A stretch of DNA of 64,000 nt from Phycisphaeraceae bacterium (GTDB lineage Bacteria > Planctomycetota > Phycisphaerae > Phycisphaerales > Phycisphaeraceae): assembly GCA_963674705.1 (NCBI GenBank), contig OY771506.1, forward strand, positions 3,328,001 through 3,392,000, read 5' to 3'. The position numbers and the translations under genes are program-made. The notes beneath the pieces were generated by a model. The model did no database searches, was not told where the DNA came from, and was given only the letters and a program-made list of their open reading frames with translations. This document shows, in pieces, positions 12,996 through 23,590 of the stretch. The number at the start of each line of letters is the position of its first letter. Positions within the stretch are counted from its first letter, which is position 1.

Positions 12996-15749
12996 GTGAG
13001 TAGTCACCGGTTGTATTTCCACGCGCGTTTCGGGCTGATCCTGGTCCTGATGTTGCTATGCGCTACCGAAACCGTCTGGGCCCAGTCATCGATCATCCGC
13101 CCACGTCGGCTGGTCAAGCTCTTCGACTTCGAGGAGCCGGACAACTACGAATCCCTGCCCAAGAACTGGTTCATCATCGGCAGGCCCGCCGAGACGACCG
13201 ACAACACCTTCTTCCGCGAGCCGCTGCACCACGAACTGATGGAGCGACCGGGCTATCCGTCATTTACCGAGGTGCGTTTTGATCAGACCCATGCCACGTC
13301 GGGGCAGCGCTGTCTCTACCTCGGGCTCAACGGCGGCAGCGCCGGGGCGTTCCTGGAAGTGGGCACCATCCCCTCCGTCCCGCAGAGTGATTACCTGGTG
13401 ACCGCCGCGGTCCGCACCGAAGATTTGAAGCATGCCTCGGCCTACCTCACAGTGTACTTCGTCGACCGACAGGGCCAGCGCATCGAAGCCAGCGTCACCC
13501 AGAGCCAGCCGATCCGCACGTGGGGCGAATGGACACAGGTTGCCCTGAAGCTGCGAGGCGATATTGAAGGGGCGGTATGGATCGGCATGGAAGCCGAACT
13601 GCGTCAGCCCAAACGCGACCCGGACGACCCACTGGGTGCTCAACGCATCCTGCTCAAGGATATCGAAGGCAAAGTCTGGTTCGACGATATCTCCATCTGG
13701 CAGCTTCCCCGCATCGAAGTTGCTACGCAGAGCAAGGTCAACCTGATACGCGACCCGCAAAAACCCGAACTTGCCATCAGTGTCCGTGACCTGACCGGGC
13801 AGAACCTCTACGTTCAGGTCGTGGCATACGACTATCAACTCAAACCCGCCGCGGTCGATCGCCGTAAACTCGGTGTCGGTGCGCCGAGGTTCTGGACCTG
13901 GCAGCCGGACCTGCCCGGCTACGGCTGGTACCTCGTGGACATGCAGGTGCGTGATGAAAACGCTGCGGCATCCAGCATGCAAACACCTATCGCGCGCACG
14001 TTCGGCGCTTTTGTCTGGCTGCCGCCGAACGATGCGCTGAACCCGGTGGACGCCCAGCGATTCAAGCTGATTGCTTCGGACCTGTCTGACGAGCAGATGA
14101 ACTTTCTGCCGCAATTGCTGGAAGGCTCCGGCATACGCTCGACGGTGCTCAGTGTCTGGGAGCGGTCCACAACATTATCCGGCGTAGAAAAACGAAAAGA
14201 CCGCCTCGATGAGATGATGCAGTGGCTGTATCTGAGCGGGCGCAGTGCTGCGTTATCGCTTGATCCCGTGCCCAGGTCACTTGCCGATGCGGTCAATATG
14301 CCGTCGGTCGATCCGCTTTCCCTGCTTGGCACGGACCGATCGCAGTGGCTTGCTTATCTCACACCCACCTTGCTCAGCCATGGCCAGCGCATCCATCGCT
14401 GGTGTCTCGGTTCGCCCGATCAGGCATATGCCTTTTACGATCAGGACCTGCCTGAGATGCTCGACGAAGTTTACGTTCAGTTCTCAACGCTCGCGCCCTC
14501 GCCGGAACTGGTCATCCCATGGCGTGCGGACCAGGCCCGACGAAGCGATATGCCCGAATCGACGTACTACCTGATGGACGTCCCTCCGAGCATCGTTGCC
14601 GAAGAGTTGCCCACCCATTTAGAGCAGTGGCGCGACATCAAGGACCGATTGACATTGCACCTGCGCGAGCCGCCTGCCAACCATGTATCGCACGCACGCC
14701 GGGTCACCGATATGGCCATCCGGATGATGATGGCATGGGAATATCAACCCGAAACCATCGCGGTATCCAGACTCTGGACGCAAGCCGCTCAGCGCGAAAC
14801 CGCCATCGTGCCGGACCCGCTGCTGGGGGTCTTTGCGAATATGGCCCACGAATTATCCGGCCGACGTGTCATCGGCAAACTCGAACTGGGCGGCGGCCTG
14901 GAAGTACGCATCCTCGACGGCCCGGCCGGCCCCGCACTCGTCACCTGGGCGCAGCAGCCCGGTTCGCCCGAAAGCATCTTGAATCTTTACATGGGGCAAA
15001 ACCCGGTTGCCAAGGATGTCTGGGGCAACCAGTCGCCGATCCCCTTAATCAATGGCAAGCACCAGTTTCAGGTTCCCGAGACGCCGGTCTTTATCACCGG
15101 CATTGATGCCGATCTTGCCATGTTCCGCGCCGGTTTTACGATCGACGAGCCGTTCATCGATTCAACCCGAAGCCTGCACGATCGTGTCTTCACACTCACC
15201 AATCCCTGGTCAAAAACCATCAGCGGATACATGCGTATCACCGGCCCGCAAGGTTGGGAGTCCAGACCGACCCGTCATTACTTCTCGATACCCGCCGGGC
15301 GCAGCATGACCCTGCCCACCGCTTTGACGTTCCCCGTATCCGAAGTCGCCGGGCATCATACGATCACCGCACGCTTCGAATTCAACGCCGACGAACCGAT
15401 GGAGATCGACATGTCATTGCCGGTTGAAGTCGGCTTGAAGGATGTGCGTTTCAACGGCACGGTTGCGCTCAATCCGGGCGAAGAACCGGGTACCGAAGAC
15501 GCGACCGCCTCGGCTGTCGTCACCAATACCGGAAGCCAGAAGCTGTCGCTTTACGTCTTCGCCAATCTGCCCGGCCACCCGATCCAGGAACGCATCGTCG
15601 CCGAACTCGATCCGGGTGAATCCGCCGTACGCCACTTCCGTTTCCCCGGCGCAGGCCAGGCCCTGCGCGATAACGCCATGCGATTAGGCGTCCGCGAAGT
15701 CGACGGCCCAAGAATGCTCAACCAACGTTTCACGATCAGCGAAGAGTAA
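12996..15749 (+). CDS. Large secreted hypothetical protein (possible N-terminal carbohydrate-binding jelly-roll and C-terminal Ig/NEW3-like domains)
   Basis: 917-aa ORF with signal peptide, FDFEE...VWFDDISI jelly-roll-like segment and beta-rich C-terminus; domain calls tentative. Confidence 0.75.
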   Translation: MSSHRLYFHARFGLILVLMLLCATETVWAQSSIIRPRRLVKLFDFEEPDNYESLPKNWFIIGRPAETTDNTFFREPLHHELMERPGYPSFTEVRFDQTHATSGQRCLYLGLNGGSAGAFLEVGTIPSVPQSDYLVTAAVRTEDLKHASAYLTVYFVDRQGQRIEASVTQSQPIRTWGEWTQVALKLRGDIEGAVWIGMEAELRQPKRDPDDPLGAQRILLKDIEGKVWFDDISIWQLPRIEVATQSKVNLIRDPQKPELAISVRDLTGQNLYVQVVAYDYQLKPAAVDRRKLGVGAPRFWTWQPDLPGYGWYLVDMQVRDENAAASSMQTPIARTFGAFVWLPPNDALNPVDAQRFKLIASDLSDEQMNFLPQLLEGSGIRSTVLSVWERSTTLSGVEKRKDRLDEMMQWLYLSGRSAALSLDPVPRSLADAVNMPSVDPLSLLGTDRSQWLAYLTPTLLSHGQRIHRWCLGSPDQAYAFYDQDLPEMLDEVYVQFSTLAPSPELVIPWRADQARRSDMPESTYYLMDVPPSIVAEELPTHLEQWRDIKDRLTLHLREPPANHVSHARRVTDMAIRMMMAWEYQPETIAVSRLWTQAAQRETAIVPDPLLGVFANMAHELSGRRVIGKLELGGGLEVRILDGPAGPALVTWAQQPGSPESILNLYMGQNPVAKDVWGNQSPIPLINGKHQFQVPETPVFITGIDADLAMFRAGFTIDEPFIDSTRSLHDRVFTLTNPWSKTISGYMRITGPQGWESRPTRHYFSIPAGRSMTLPTALTFPVSEVAGHHTITARFEFNADEPMEIDMSLPVEVGLKDVRFNGTVALNPGEEPGTEDATASAVVTNTGSQKLSLYVFANLPGHPIQERIVAELDPGESAVRHFRFPGAGQALRDNAMRLGVREVDGPRMLNQRFTISEE

Positions 15750-15949: not shown

Positions 15950-16198
15950 TTATGTCTGACGTTTACGCATGATCAGGAGTGCCAGGCCTTGCGGCGCCCC
16001 CAGTAGTAACGCCGTGGGTTCGGGGATGGATTGCATCACGTTATCCTCGCCATCTTCTTCACTATTCAGGGCGGTGCCGTCATCGATGCCGGGCTCGGTT
16101 GCGGTCGTTTACGCTTGAGCCGTTGCTGTATTAACCATACTAAGCAGTCCCGCCAGACCGATCGCGCCTACTGATTGATGCAGCTTTCTCCTCTTCAC
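15950..16198 (-). pseudogene. Minimal PEP-CTERM protein interrupted by an in-frame TAA
   Basis: Hand translation: VKRRKLHQSVGAIGLAGLLSMVNTATAQA*TTATEPGIDDGTALNSEEDGEDNVMQSIPEPTALLLGAPQGLALLIMRKRQT*; internal stop at 16109-16111. Confidence 0.75.
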
Positions 16199-16428
16199 AT
16201 CTCCCACGGCATCGTGGGTTATTTAAAGTGGGCTTGCGTGGCTCGCAACGACACGGCCACGCAAGGGCCCGTTCCGGGGTCGCCCCAGTGGGGGTAAAGG
16301 GCTTGTCCGGTTACCTGTTAGTCGTTCTGGAGGGGGGGACAACAAGGCGGGTTGTGAAAAAAGAAATAAACACCTTGATCGGTTCGTTATATTGGCACAC
16401 AATTGGGAGTGGAATCACATGGGGCCCA

Positions 16429-18555
16429 ATGACTGACGAACAAGCCCTACGAGCTTTGGTGGAAGAGAACTGCTGCAAGGCCTTTGCTGCGCTTGTAGAC
16501 AGGTACTATCGCCAGGTCTTCTCGATCTGCTATCGGCGGCTGAATAACCGTGCGGACGCCGAGGACGCCACACAGGACGTCTTCCGCAAGCTGATCGAAT
16601 CCTCCGACGAAATCGAACGCGACCTGGGCGGCTGGCTGCGGAGCTGTGCCGTCAATACCAGCATCAGTATGATCCGCTCGTCCTCGGCCCGCCGGCGTCG
16701 TGAGAATGCTTGTGACAACGAAGAGTGCTGTGCCGAATCTACCGAACATATCGACCGGGTTGAGTTGGTAAACCGCATGCTCAGCGAGCTGGACGATCAG
16801 CAGCGCGAATTGTTGATCCGGCACGTGGTCGGCGGGGTATCCCAATCCGCATTGGCTCAGGAACTGGGCGTCACCCAGCAGGCGGTGGCTTCACGAATAA
16901 CGACCATCCGCAACCGGCTGCGGGGCTGGCTTGACCTGCGCCAGATCACACTCGGCCTGGGCTTCCTGGTCACGGGCTGGTGGTCCACCGCCAAAGCCGC
17001 TGTCATCCGCACCGCGACATCACTGGGCCTGCCCACGACAGGCGGCGGTGTCGGCGTCGTCGGCGCTTCAGCAGGTAAAGGCACGATCGCGACCGCGGTT
17101 GCTGTCAGCGTGATCTGCTTATTACCCGGTGACGATCCGCAAGTCCTCACTCAACAGCACAACCGGCCTGATCGCAATACCCAGGCTCGCGCAACAACAT
17201 ACAGCCCGGCAGATTCCCAAACGCGGAACGCGGCTAATAGCTCAGCAACGATCGATCCCAACTTGCTGCTTGTCAATGACAACACATCAAGTTCAGCCGG
17301 CCGTTCACTCAGCAGTTTGATGGCAAACGCGGCGGACGTCTCGTTGTATCCACGTACCGTGACAGACCCGCTCCAGTACAACAACACGCAAGTCAGCGAG
17401 CCACTGGTAAACGCCGCTTCGACCTCGCCGGTAGCAGCAGCAACGCCCGTAATGACGGTGCCTGCCGCTCAACCCTTTACTTCGAATAACAGCACGTCAC
17501 TTGCGATCGCAACACCAAACCGGGTCACGCGGGATTCGGATCTATCAGCCGATACGACCGAGACGCGTGAACTCTCGAGCGTCGCTATTACACCCACTAC
17601 GCCGTCAACGGCCGAGCAGCCGGAAGCCGATATGCCCGTCGAGGTGGTGGATGCTGAAGAAGACATCCCCGCTGTCGGTGGCGGCGCTCATAAAGTGGTT
17701 GTTGTTGCAAAGGTCAACCCACACTATGGCGGCGGTCATGCCATGACCTGGCAAATGAATCCCGACCATGCGTTTGTGATCGACAAGATACAGCAATGGG
17801 CTGATGCGCGATGGGACCGAACCCAGGCGACCCAGCAGTGGCAGCCGACGATCCCAACTGAACACGTCGATGATGTATCGGCGCTTGCGGGAACCGTCGA
17901 CTTCAACGAACCGAACGAGCCGGCAGAGCACACCGAACCTTCAAACGATGCCGAATACGCCGACGCCGATGCGCCGTTTGACTTCAAACCCTTCAAGCGA
18001 CCGCCCCGCGACATGCGCTGGGAGGAAGACCGGCCGATCTTCGCGGATGGTTTTCCTGAGCCCGGGCCGTTTGATGATTTTGACCCGCAGCACGCAATGA
18101 CGCCGCCGGACTTCGAGCCGTTGACACAATTTGATGGCGAGTATCATCCGTTCGAGCAATCCACCACCTTTGCGGCCATCCTCCCCAACGGTGATAAGCC
18201 TGCTGAGCCCGACGCGGTAATCGGTGAAGTGTGGATGCCGATCATGCCTGTTCCCGATGTCATTGCCATCATCAACGCTACTGCCGAACACGACAACGTG
18301 CCGGATGTATCGGCAGGCGACGTATCGGATGGATGGGGAGATTCAGAGGACTTAACTGATATTGATCTGGCGGCCGTCATCATCCCCGTCGCGACGACTT
18401 TCTCCTTTACCTATCAGCCGGTGATCGTCCCGATGAGCTTCGCCGCCGATTCCGAGCGGTTGGCGTTGAACCAGACGCCGGCGACCCCACTGCCCGAACC
18501 GGCGGGCATCCTGCTGCTGGGCCTCGGCTCGACGCTGCTGCTGCGCCGGTCCTGA
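16429..18555 (+). CDS. ECF sigma-70 factor with long C-terminal extension ending in a PEP-CTERM signal
   Basis: Region 2: AFAALVDRY...DAEDATQDVF...GWLRSCAVN; region 4: LSELDDQQRELL...SQSALAQELGVTQQAVASRI; C-terminus LPEPAGILLLGLGSTLLLRRS; start set at ATG 16429. Confidence 0.85.
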   Translation: MTDEQALRALVEENCCKAFAALVDRYYRQVFSICYRRLNNRADAEDATQDVFRKLIESSDEIERDLGGWLRSCAVNTSISMIRSSSARRRRENACDNEECCAESTEHIDRVELVNRMLSELDDQQRELLIRHVVGGVSQSALAQELGVTQQAVASRITTIRNRLRGWLDLRQITLGLGFLVTGWWSTAKAAVIRTATSLGLPTTGGGVGVVGASAGKGTIATAVAVSVICLLPGDDPQVLTQQHNRPDRNTQARATTYSPADSQTRNAANSSATIDPNLLLVNDNTSSSAGRSLSSLMANAADVSLYPRTVTDPLQYNNTQVSEPLVNAASTSPVAAATPVMTVPAAQPFTSNNSTSLAIATPNRVTRDSDLSADTTETRELSSVAITPTTPSTAEQPEADMPVEVVDAEEDIPAVGGGAHKVVVVAKVNPHYGGGHAMTWQMNPDHAFVIDKIQQWADARWDRTQATQQWQPTIPTEHVDDVSALAGTVDFNEPNEPAEHTEPSNDAEYADADAPFDFKPFKRPPRDMRWEEDRPIFADGFPEPGPFDDFDPQHAMTPPDFEPLTQFDGEYHPFEQSTTFAAILPNGDKPAEPDAVIGEVWMPIMPVPDVIAIINATAEHDNVPDVSAGDVSDGWGDSEDLTDIDLAAVIIPVATTFSFTYQPVIVPMSFAADSERLALNQTPATPLPEPAGILLLGLGSTLLLRRS

Positions 18556-18706
18556 ACAGCACATCCAATACTCAAGCAGATCAAACCACCGGGGCACTAC
18601 GTAAGTTTGCTGTCAATCCACCGGCCGCGTAGATGATGGCCGCGCTGGCTGTTGGTACACTCTTGGCATGGTTAACCGGGGGTGAACTACGTACAGGGAA
18701 TTCAAC

Positions 18707-21976: not shown

Positions 21977-23590
21977 ATGATCCGTTATCTGAAGTTTATG
22001 ACGGCAATCCTGTTGTTTGCCATCGCGACGGTACTTTCCGGGGCATCCGGAGTGTCCGAGGCCTATGGGGATACAGGGGGTTCCGGGGCTGATGATGCCG
22101 AAACGTACGAGCTATTTGTGTCACACGCCGAACCCGAAGCGATCGCCGGCGCGAAGCTGAGCGTGCTTTCCTACAACGCCGACATCAATGGCTTTCGCAC
22201 GGTGGGGGGGATCGATGCCGTGTTTGATCAACAAGCCCGTTGCAACGTCAACCTGCCGCCAGGCCGGTATATCTTTGAAGTCCTGAGCAACCATCAACCG
22301 GACACCATCGTTGCCTTGCGCTCAAACCCAATGGCGCTGCGTCGTGGCAGAAAGATCGAAGTCATCGCGAGCCAGCCCGTCCCGCTTGAGGTGCTTGTCG
22401 AGCGTAAGCCGGTCACACTGGAAACGGTCATGGTCCGCTCAGCCGCAACCGAAGGCGCATTGAAGTGGCAAGCCAAAGAAGATCAGCAAACACTATCCCT
22501 GATCCTGACGCCGAACGAAAACTATCGCCTTGCGATCTTCGCCAATCGAGAAAACCAGCGCTACGCATTCTGGCTAAAGAGCCGATCGCAAGACCTGAAA
22601 ACCGTCACGCTGCCGATGGATAAGGCCCGACGTCTGAAGTTCACCTGGCGCGATGGCGGCGAGCCGCGTGACGAATCCAAGCCCGCGCATGTCACGCTGT
22701 TCTTCCCGGATAACACCTGGCGTCTTGCCCTCGAACCTGATCTTGAGATCTACACCAACCGCCGATACATGGAGATGGCCTACAGCTACCCGACCCCACG
22801 CGGAACGTCCATGTACTTCCATCAAAAAGGCTACCTTCTTGAGAAGGACGGCACGATCGAGATCGGCGGGCCGGTCAAAGCGTACGCCTTCATCGCGGTG
22901 CAAAAAACCTATCAGTCACATGTCCGATACGAGCCCATGCTCTACCACCATGTCTGGCTGGCAGACGAATCGCAGCACCAGCTCAATCCGGTCGAATCCA
23001 AAGCCAACCTTAAATCCGTCCTGCATCGCATCGATGGAAAGGAAGTACCGAGTAATCCATTGCCAGCCGGCTCATTGGATAACCTGCGGCCATTATCCGA
23101 ACACTTCTACGTCGACATCTCCTACGACCTGGGAACCCCGCAGCAAATCGAACTCGCTCCGGTCGAACCGGTCGAAGTGCATTCCGCACACTTTGTGATG
23201 CCTGCCGTCCCCGGCTGGGAATGGCGCACCAAGGTCTATCTTTTACGAGCAGAACGCGCCTATCAGATGTTAGGGCCGGTAAGTGAATTCCCCGCCTCAT
23301 CCAACGTCATCATCGGATTCATGACCGACACAAGCCGGGCACGAGGCGGATGGAAAGGCAAACGCCGGGGAAGCAAACGCGGCCACATCAATATGCCGTT
23401 CCGCCATTACGTTCACGGCTTCGACGCCTTTGCACATACCAAGTTCCTCGTGCATGAAGTCGCTCATACCTACGGCTATCCCCACGGCGAAGCCATGAGC
23501 GCCACTCAACATGAGGCCGAACGACGTTACCACGAACACCGCTGGTTTGCCGCGGATAATCCCGATTACATCCCAAGCATCGCCTGGTAG
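21977..23590 (+). CDS. Secreted hypothetical protein with C-terminal zincin motif
   Basis: Signal peptide; HEVAHTYGYPH matches HExxHxxGxxH. Confidence 0.7.
   Translation: MIRYLKFMTAILLFAIATVLSGASGVSEAYGDTGGSGADDAETYELFVSHAEPEAIAGAKLSVLSYNADINGFRTVGGIDAVFDQQARCNVNLPPGRYIFEVLSNHQPDTIVALRSNPMALRRGRKIEVIASQPVPLEVLVERKPVTLETVMVRSAATEGALKWQAKEDQQTLSLILTPNENYRLAIFANRENQRYAFWLKSRSQDLKTVTLPMDKARRLKFTWRDGGEPRDESKPAHVTLFFPDNTWRLALEPDLEIYTNRRYMEMAYSYPTPRGTSMYFHQKGYLLEKDGTIEIGGPVKAYAFIAVQKTYQSHVRYEPMLYHHVWLADESQHQLNPVESKANLKSVLHRIDGKEVPSNPLPAGSLDNLRPLSEHFYVDISYDLGTPQQIELAPVEPVEVHSAHFVMPAVPGWEWRTKVYLLRAERAYQMLGPVSEFPASSNVIIGFMTDTSRARGGWKGKRRGSKRGHINMPFRHYVHGFDAFAHTKFLVHEVAHTYGYPHGEAMSATQHEAERRYHEHRWFAADNPDYIPSIAW

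Follow-up and report, generated by a model that had tools for sequence, protein, structure and literature searches.

The gene at positions 16429–18555 (+) of the window, as we call the whole stretch of 64,000 nucleotides that was analyzed, encodes a single protein of 708 amino acids in which an ECF sigma factor is followed by a predicted membrane helix, a linker and a PEP-CTERM tail. That this sigma/PEP-CTERM fusion is real, and one gene, is confirmed by the frame, the domain matches and related contigs. As the best model for its function we propose a self-tethered sigma factor, capped by its tail, which would be released by exosortase and then by Prc/RseP-type proteases and would serve a regulon centred on an S1 protease. 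We assign to this model a probability of roughly 0.45.

The frame consists of 708 codons and a stop, and its translation contains no internal stops. An earlier note on this DNA had called for other sequence data as a check that no stop had been lost. The contig from run X2, which may be the source sample, shows no differences from positions 16516–18700, and the X3 and X6 contigs, which come from two other studies and are about 95% alike, cover the whole stretch with in-gene indels of 3 or 6 bases only. The related genome G004 holds the same frame at 93% identity. A lost stop, or two genes read as one, was considered and rejected, as X2, X3, X6 and G004 all keep a single frame. When compared to G004, the sigma domain has a dN/dS of 0.14, the membrane region one of 0.13 and the linker one of 0.37, and the tail exhibits four synonymous changes and no non-synonymous one; by sequence comparison the tail is under purifying selection. 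The start at 16429 yields an MTD(E/D) N-terminus common to P0003, G007 and G021. The public protein record P0002 (698 aa) begins at window position 16459, 10 codons late, and the homologues favour the ATG at 16429.

The earlier claim of one open frame with sigma regions 2 and 4 held. Region 2 (residues 22–86; 16492–16686, +) is matched by Sigma70_r2 (PF04542, E 2.9e-13), and region 4 (residues 114–163; 16768–16917, +), which includes the QQAV segment of the clade, by Sigma70_r4_2 (PF08281, E 1.1e-7); TIGR02937 scores 80.7 against a cut-off of 42.9. As in group 4 sigma-70 factors, only regions 2 and 4 are present, joined by a short linker, and region 3 is absent. An AlphaFold model of residues 1–250, made with 70 sequences, has high confidence up to about residue 170 (pLDDT 95–98 in region 2) and resembles ECF structures such as SigW and RpoE, ECF structures being the best Foldseek matches; matches in the ESM Atlas were to generic ECF clusters only (<0.9). 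Among the 42 members that bear the tail, Q150 and Q151 are present in 100%, and the conserved cysteines, Cys34 and Cys73, both lie in region 2, region 4 having none. A search of this genome with this sigma domain gave 16 sigma-like frames, and among them the PEP-CTERM tail is found in the window gene only.

Behind the sigma domain the earlier note had seen two hydrophobic segments. Both were recovered, and the second alone resembles a genuine membrane span, with a 15-residue hydropathy of 2.3 against 1.1 for the first. Helix A (about residues 174–198; 16948–17022, +) is weakly hydrophobic: the median hydropathy over 42 members is 1.63, 14 of them reach 1.8, and there are on average 2.8 K/R ahead of it and as many between helices A and B. 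It is probably not a span, but cytoplasmic or placed on the membrane surface; the fold model has a pLDDT of 45–62 there. Helix B (about residues 218–233; 17080–17127, +), predicted from hydropathy and charge to be a single N-in/C-out span, has a median of 2.03 and reaches 1.8 in 35 of the 42 members. It is preceded by Lys217, conserved in 86% of them, and the 15 residues that follow it are net acidic (1.1 K/R against 2.1 D/E). Basic residues mark the cytoplasmic side of a membrane helix (the positive-inside rule), so that one span at helix B would leave the sigma domain inside and the linker outside. This topology is, in our view, highly likely, and the protein would accordingly be a loop fixed at either end. 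An alternative with two spans following the sigma domain was also considered and is disfavoured by the charge pattern. A PEP-CTERM tail requires the C-terminus outside (PMC1569441), the same orientation as predicted here.

The linker (17128–18489, +) is predicted, from its composition and from the lack of Pfam and BLAST matches, to be periplasmic and disordered. Its description as roughly 450 residues rich in T/S/P and then acidic was borne out: residues 236–420 are 34% T/S/P, and residues 471–600 are 24% D/E. No Pfam domain was matched in the extension, and BLAST of the linker against those of nine other members gave no match; among the 10 members compared, only three that share a PGxSP domain align. 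Length ranges from 235 to 661 aa across 42 members. Linker length and composition are what the members conserve, and not sequence, and no conserved cleavage site was seen in it.

The C-terminus reads LPEP-TM-RRS, and the PEP-CTERM tail claimed for it occupies residues 688–708 (18490–18552, +). Its pass with TIGR02595 is only marginal, because the tail scores 17.2 bits when cut to 30 aa and 15.6 when cut to 51 aa, against a cut-off of 16, a scan of the whole 541-aa extension gave no match, and PF07589 fails at 15.5 against 20.7. The tail has the same pattern as 368 PEP-CTERM-like C-termini (a few of them false) that a pattern search finds in this genome, and six of eight homologous tails reach the TIGR02595 cut-off, those of G355 and G695 giving no match. 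The genome (5.54 Mb, 56.6% GC) encodes three exosortases (PF09721, above cut-off), which makes the window protein a plausible exosortase substrate, and exosortase genes are present in all four of the other sigma carriers tested. The N-terminus is the sigma domain instead of a signal peptide; helix B would replace the latter as an internal anchor. With about 370 PEP-CTERM-like proteins, some 9% of its genes, this genome greatly exceeds the 65 that PMC1569441 mentions as a high number.

The neighbours of the gene in the window encode a metallophosphoesterase, release factor 1 and a 917-aa protein; no outer-membrane receptor gene is adjacent, and no sigma-70 promoter was called here. The 917-aa protein (12996–15749, +) and another of 537 aa (21977–23590, +) have no Pfam or NCBIfam match over cut-off. 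Divergent to the sigma gene lies a mini-PEP-CTERM gene (15950–16192, −) comprising a signal peptide, a short acidic stretch and a PEP-CTERM, which is broken by loss of the start codon and by an internal stop. It is intact in G004 (80 aa; L024:8398-8640, −), and X3 and X6 have the letters of G004 at both broken codons, so that it is apparently intact there. At the same place G007 and G021 carry a PEP-CTERM S1 protease gene, and the mini-gene tail is identical to that of the G007 protease at 13 of 24 positions; from these sequences, the window mini gene is likely a remnant of such a protease gene. The 80-aa protein could be a minimal exosortase substrate or a decoy. Its predicted 5′ leader (16205–16320, −) forms two hairpins (z −3.1) of the same shape as in G007 (z −2.8), with no Rfam match near the gathering score. 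The leader was found in this genome (G000) and in G007, one of matching two-hairpin shape lying at L021:8215-8330 (−).

Facing the divergent gene is a predicted promoter, CTTGT-N17-CGAC (16321–16346, −), kept in G004, G007 and G021 amid a spacer that cannot be aligned. The motif was derived by aligning the divergent intergenic regions of the window and of these three genomes, and was broadened to [GC]TTGT-N17-C[GA]AC from G164, G103, G380 and G695. In a family-wide comparison, it occurs with spacer 17 before 13 of 21 S1 protease genes, in 13 of 16 sigma-carrying genomes, and before none of 14 such genes in six genomes where the sigma was not found, counts that overstate independence because the genomes are kin; G010 was placed outside both groups, and one of the five proteases of G000 was included. 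Other spacers from 14 to 20 place at most one site before S1 protease genes. Seven genomes were found after the motif had been fixed, and they exhibit six exact sites and one with a single mismatch (G608). We regard the motif as very probably the promoter of this sigma factor.

This genome contains 34 exact CTTGT-N17-CGAC matches, one of which lies about 105 bases before G000:C1:3261272-3262375 (−), encoding an S1 protease (PF00089). Of the five paralogues in this genome, this one comes closest to the G021 protease, and it alone is preceded by the motif. The protease carries the His and Asp motifs as well as GDSGG, together with a dockerin-like repeat, and its residue six before the catalytic Ser is Leu, presumably indicating a non-trypsin pocket. 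In the window strain the adjacent target gene is broken, and the tail of the remote protease reads PEA, where that of G004 reads PEP. The second-best weight-matrix site, G000:C1:3479119 (+), has no sense gene behind it and is followed by an inverted repeat; it may be due to chance or belong to a small RNA.

The motif also precedes the sigma gene itself in G164, G103, G485, G454, G520 and the metagenome contig L035, with a somewhat variable −10 box; in the window, no site was seen before the sigma gene. G103 has CAAC at its local sites and CGAC before its protease. The idea that the −10 box changes strictly in step with the sigma sequence was considered and dropped, because the boxes of G103, G454 and G520 differ between own and protease sites. 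In G164 the motif is present at a divergent PEP-CTERM cluster that includes another protease-like gene. The best-matching proteases of G038 and G164 have no motif site, and no such S1 protease was found in G355. In G038 (L023, about 7440, −) an exact motif lies just past the sigma stop with no protease gene following, as though left over from a tandem layout such as that of G380. In G010 (L026:7468-7730, +) two sites of the motif, along with a PEP-CTERM gene, come after a sigma of the clade that lacks the tail. The predicted sites suggest a small regulon that would include a few PEP-CTERM genes and, above all, one S1 protease.

According to the model that we favour, the tail helix would hide the C-terminus of the periplasmic linker from a tail-specific protease until exosortase cuts. 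Once the tail is removed, Prc-type and then RseP-type proteases would free the sigma domain, which would transcribe the small regulon centred on the PEP-CTERM-anchored S1 serine protease. Among the proteases encoded in the genome are one RseP-like M50 enzyme and four of the S41 (Prc-like) family. In IutY, Prc trims the periplasmic end and RseP then cuts, for release (PMC5411451; PMC8999054), and capping of the C-terminus until removal by exosortase has been proposed for CrtB substrates (PMC12188702). Release of the sigma by intramembrane proteolysis is probable; that exosortase cleavage is the enabling first cut we hold only tentatively. Cleavage by itself would be a poor signal, should exosortase process all its substrates constitutively. 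It is plausible that the sigma reports on PEP-CTERM processing. That exosortase is in full the site-1 protease of a signalling cascade, with the sigma as its built-in reporter substrate and an output that feeds back on the sorting pathway, seems to us rather doubtful; such output would be the PEP-CTERM protease or, in this genus, the 80-residue decoy-like PEP-CTERM peptide.

The linker could instead be a bait, whose cutting by the induced S1 protease that shares its tail and location, or by an outside protease, would set off release; the tail would then only co-localise and anchor the protein. A secreted protease is indeed the one conserved predicted target, sigma–protease fusions exist, and a linker kept in length and composition but not in sequence would suit a bait. 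Yet when four of these fusions were read in the DNA, all held the motif inside the frame, 177–189 bases before the mature protease, and because of this internal promoter and a signal-peptide-like stretch, they may be a simple capture of the downstream target. As the linker also lacks a visible conserved cleavage site, we consider feedback by the protease unlikely.

The same linkers, 235–661 aa long and without shared sequence, could also act as an RsgI-like gap or force sensor across the envelope, exosortase having attached the C-terminus to an acceptor that is a polysaccharide or part of the outer envelope. Scrambled disordered regions of RsgI still signal (PMC9732909), and a linkage of PEP-CTERM proteins to outer structures has been proposed (PMC12188702). 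Unlike RsgI, however, the window protein has no conserved juxtamembrane domain after helix B, and the exosortase acceptor is unsettled even in studied systems (PMC12188702). Such a tether appears distinctly unlikely.

How the tail is distributed bears on whether it has any regulatory part. A profile of the first 237 residues was run against two sets of 401 genomes, one from the class and one from the order, and the frames of the best matches were read; 42 class genomes matched at 1e-30 and 26 order genomes at 1e-39. A search across the phylum with P0090, run under a stricter filter, gave no match. The earlier note would have given up its reading had no homologue been fused; many are. Complete frames from sigma to PEP-CTERM are present in G000, G004, G038, G103, G164, G355, G380, G454, G574, G608 and G695 (the latter on the same contig as L119) and in L035, that is, in at least 11 of the 401 order genomes among the best matches read, and the family is patchy. 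The tail is preceded by a whole S1 protease in G485, G520, G531 and G549 and by the PGxSP domain in G103, G164 and L035; the G021 contig ends inside a PGxSP domain. In G007 the frame is split and the downstream frame ends in PEP-CTERM; since the next gene also has out-of-frame stretches, this is likely an assembly error and was not counted as a real loss. Of the best 150 representatives after clustering at 50% identity, 41 carry the terminal PEP-CTERM and six hold a whole S1 protease. G009, of the same genus, has exosortases, and this sigma was not found there. A tandem of three related membrane-tethered ECF genes, each with an extension of its own kind, is present on L116 (JBCCCG010000026.1) and G460:C26.

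A quick tree of the sigma core (156 rows) places all 42 tailed rows, the query included, on one 53-row side (SH-aLRT 92), in two sister subclades of 45 and four rows (SH-aLRT 88, 99 and 92 reported), which falls short of proving a single origin. The tail is present in 42 of the 49 rows of these subclades, plus one degenerate GEP tail, and in none of the 103 rows on the other side; its labels require eight changes on the tree, against a mean of 37 when shuffled. The seven subclade rows without tail are the degenerate GEP, the fragment P0064, the split G007, G010/P0069, P0083, P0104 and P0116. It could be argued that ECF genes have repeatedly been read through into neighbouring PEP-CTERM target genes, leaving a tail without regulatory part: capture of adjacent DNA has been proposed for planctomycete extensions (PMC7671368), the extensions of this family differ (bare linker, PGxSP beta-type domain, S1 protease), and some 9% of the genes in this genome have a PEP-CTERM end. 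The confinement of the tail to the subclades and its purifying selection stand against such passive capture, as does the fact that most linkers are not remains of recognisable proteins, and we judge it improbable. The family argues that at least one class of planctomycete extensions is selected for, rather than randomly captured.

The earlier note had further suggested that the sigma controls the PEP-CTERM regulon. With a roughly drawn gene set for the whole genome, non-coding sites of the exact CGAC form precede only one of 381 PEP-CTERM-like genes and none of 3975 others, which does not support control over the entire PEP-CTERM set. Relaxed forms of the motif at spacer 17 show no PEP-CTERM enrichment (p 0.09–0.65); the relaxed pattern at spacer 20 precedes 7 of 381 against 14 of 3975 genes (p 0.0015), as one of 21 tests, and may reflect chance or the motif of another sigma. 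A master regulator of the PEP-CTERM protein set is therefore very improbable, even if all predicted targets are PEP-CTERM-type or other secreted proteins and weaker weight-matrix matches occur at a few PEP-CTERM genes; the presence of exosortases in G009, where this sigma was not found, also speaks against it.

The action of exosortase on PEP-CTERM proteins, and their destination, are largely still proposals, and a tagged transcription factor makes the question testable: a reporter on the 26-base predicted promoter would read out processing of the tail. Should exosortase act as the site-1 protease, a sorting transpeptidase would be coupled directly to transcription, providing a genetic readout of exosortase activity. 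Wiegand et al. reportedly defined 30 planctomycete ECF groups in 2020. A full-text search of the literature, judged by title and the start of abstracts, yielded no description of a sigma–PEP-CTERM fusion (Wiegand et al., 2020 may cover the clade), and no paper joining exosortase, sigma factor and ECF was found in full text. PEP-CTERM is not mentioned in the available parts of the supplements of PMC7826278 and PMC7671368, and the accessible portions of PMC8103513 and PMC8567305 contain nothing on the fusion.

Several known systems share part of this architecture. IutY of Pseudomonas putida (ECF243) likewise combines a cytoplasmic ECF, a membrane helix and a periplasmic extension in one chain, its extension being an anti-sigma domain with a free C-terminus and a paired outer-membrane receptor (PMC5411451; PMC8999054). 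The window protein, unlike IutY, has a low-complexity extension, a second membrane helix with the exosortase signal and no adjacent receptor gene; its extension, with no Pfam domain, does not present the folded periplasmic anti-sigma and linked receptor of the IutY type. SCO4117 of Streptomyces coelicolor (ECF52) also joins a sigma to membrane helices and an outer proline-rich region, with proteolytic activation proposed, but it is actinobacterial, has a zinc-finger anti-sigma domain and a carbohydrate-binding C-terminal domain, and carries no sorting signal in the published description available (PMC8999054). In RsgI/SigI of Bacillus subtilis an extracytoplasmic disordered region also governs intramembrane proteolysis and sigma release; there, however, sigma and anti-sigma are separate, the juxtamembrane domain is conserved and cleaved, the envelope is Gram-positive and the available account describes no C-terminal sorting tail (PMC9732909).

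Substrates of the PEP-CTERM/exosortase system resemble the window protein in the PEP-TM-basic tail, the low-complexity body and the exosortase in the genome, but about 97% of them start with a signal peptide (PMC1569441), where here a transcription factor and an internal anchor are found instead. In contrast to the PrsK/PrsR/sigma-54 regulon (PMC1569441), the promoter predicted here is of ECF type and precedes a few genes, not most PEP-CTERM genes. ECF57, finally, is like the window protein a planctomycete ECF with two hydrophobic segments and a long extension; release from the membrane has been proposed for it, and it has one cysteine of its pair in region 2 and one in region 4 (PMC7826278); in the window family both are in region 2. 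Unlike ECF57 as described in the available part of PMC7826278, the window protein is devoid of WD40 or homeodomain-like domains, and its promoter and target can be predicted. The proteins P0008, 9, 12, 14 and 15, which from their sequence we take to be ECF57-type, form a separate long branch on the tree. The family is a planctomycete ECF group with a predicted promoter, a feature that the published ECF57 description does not give: a real and conserved self-tethered ECF variant, with predicted promoter and target, that departs from ECF57 in the cysteine pair.
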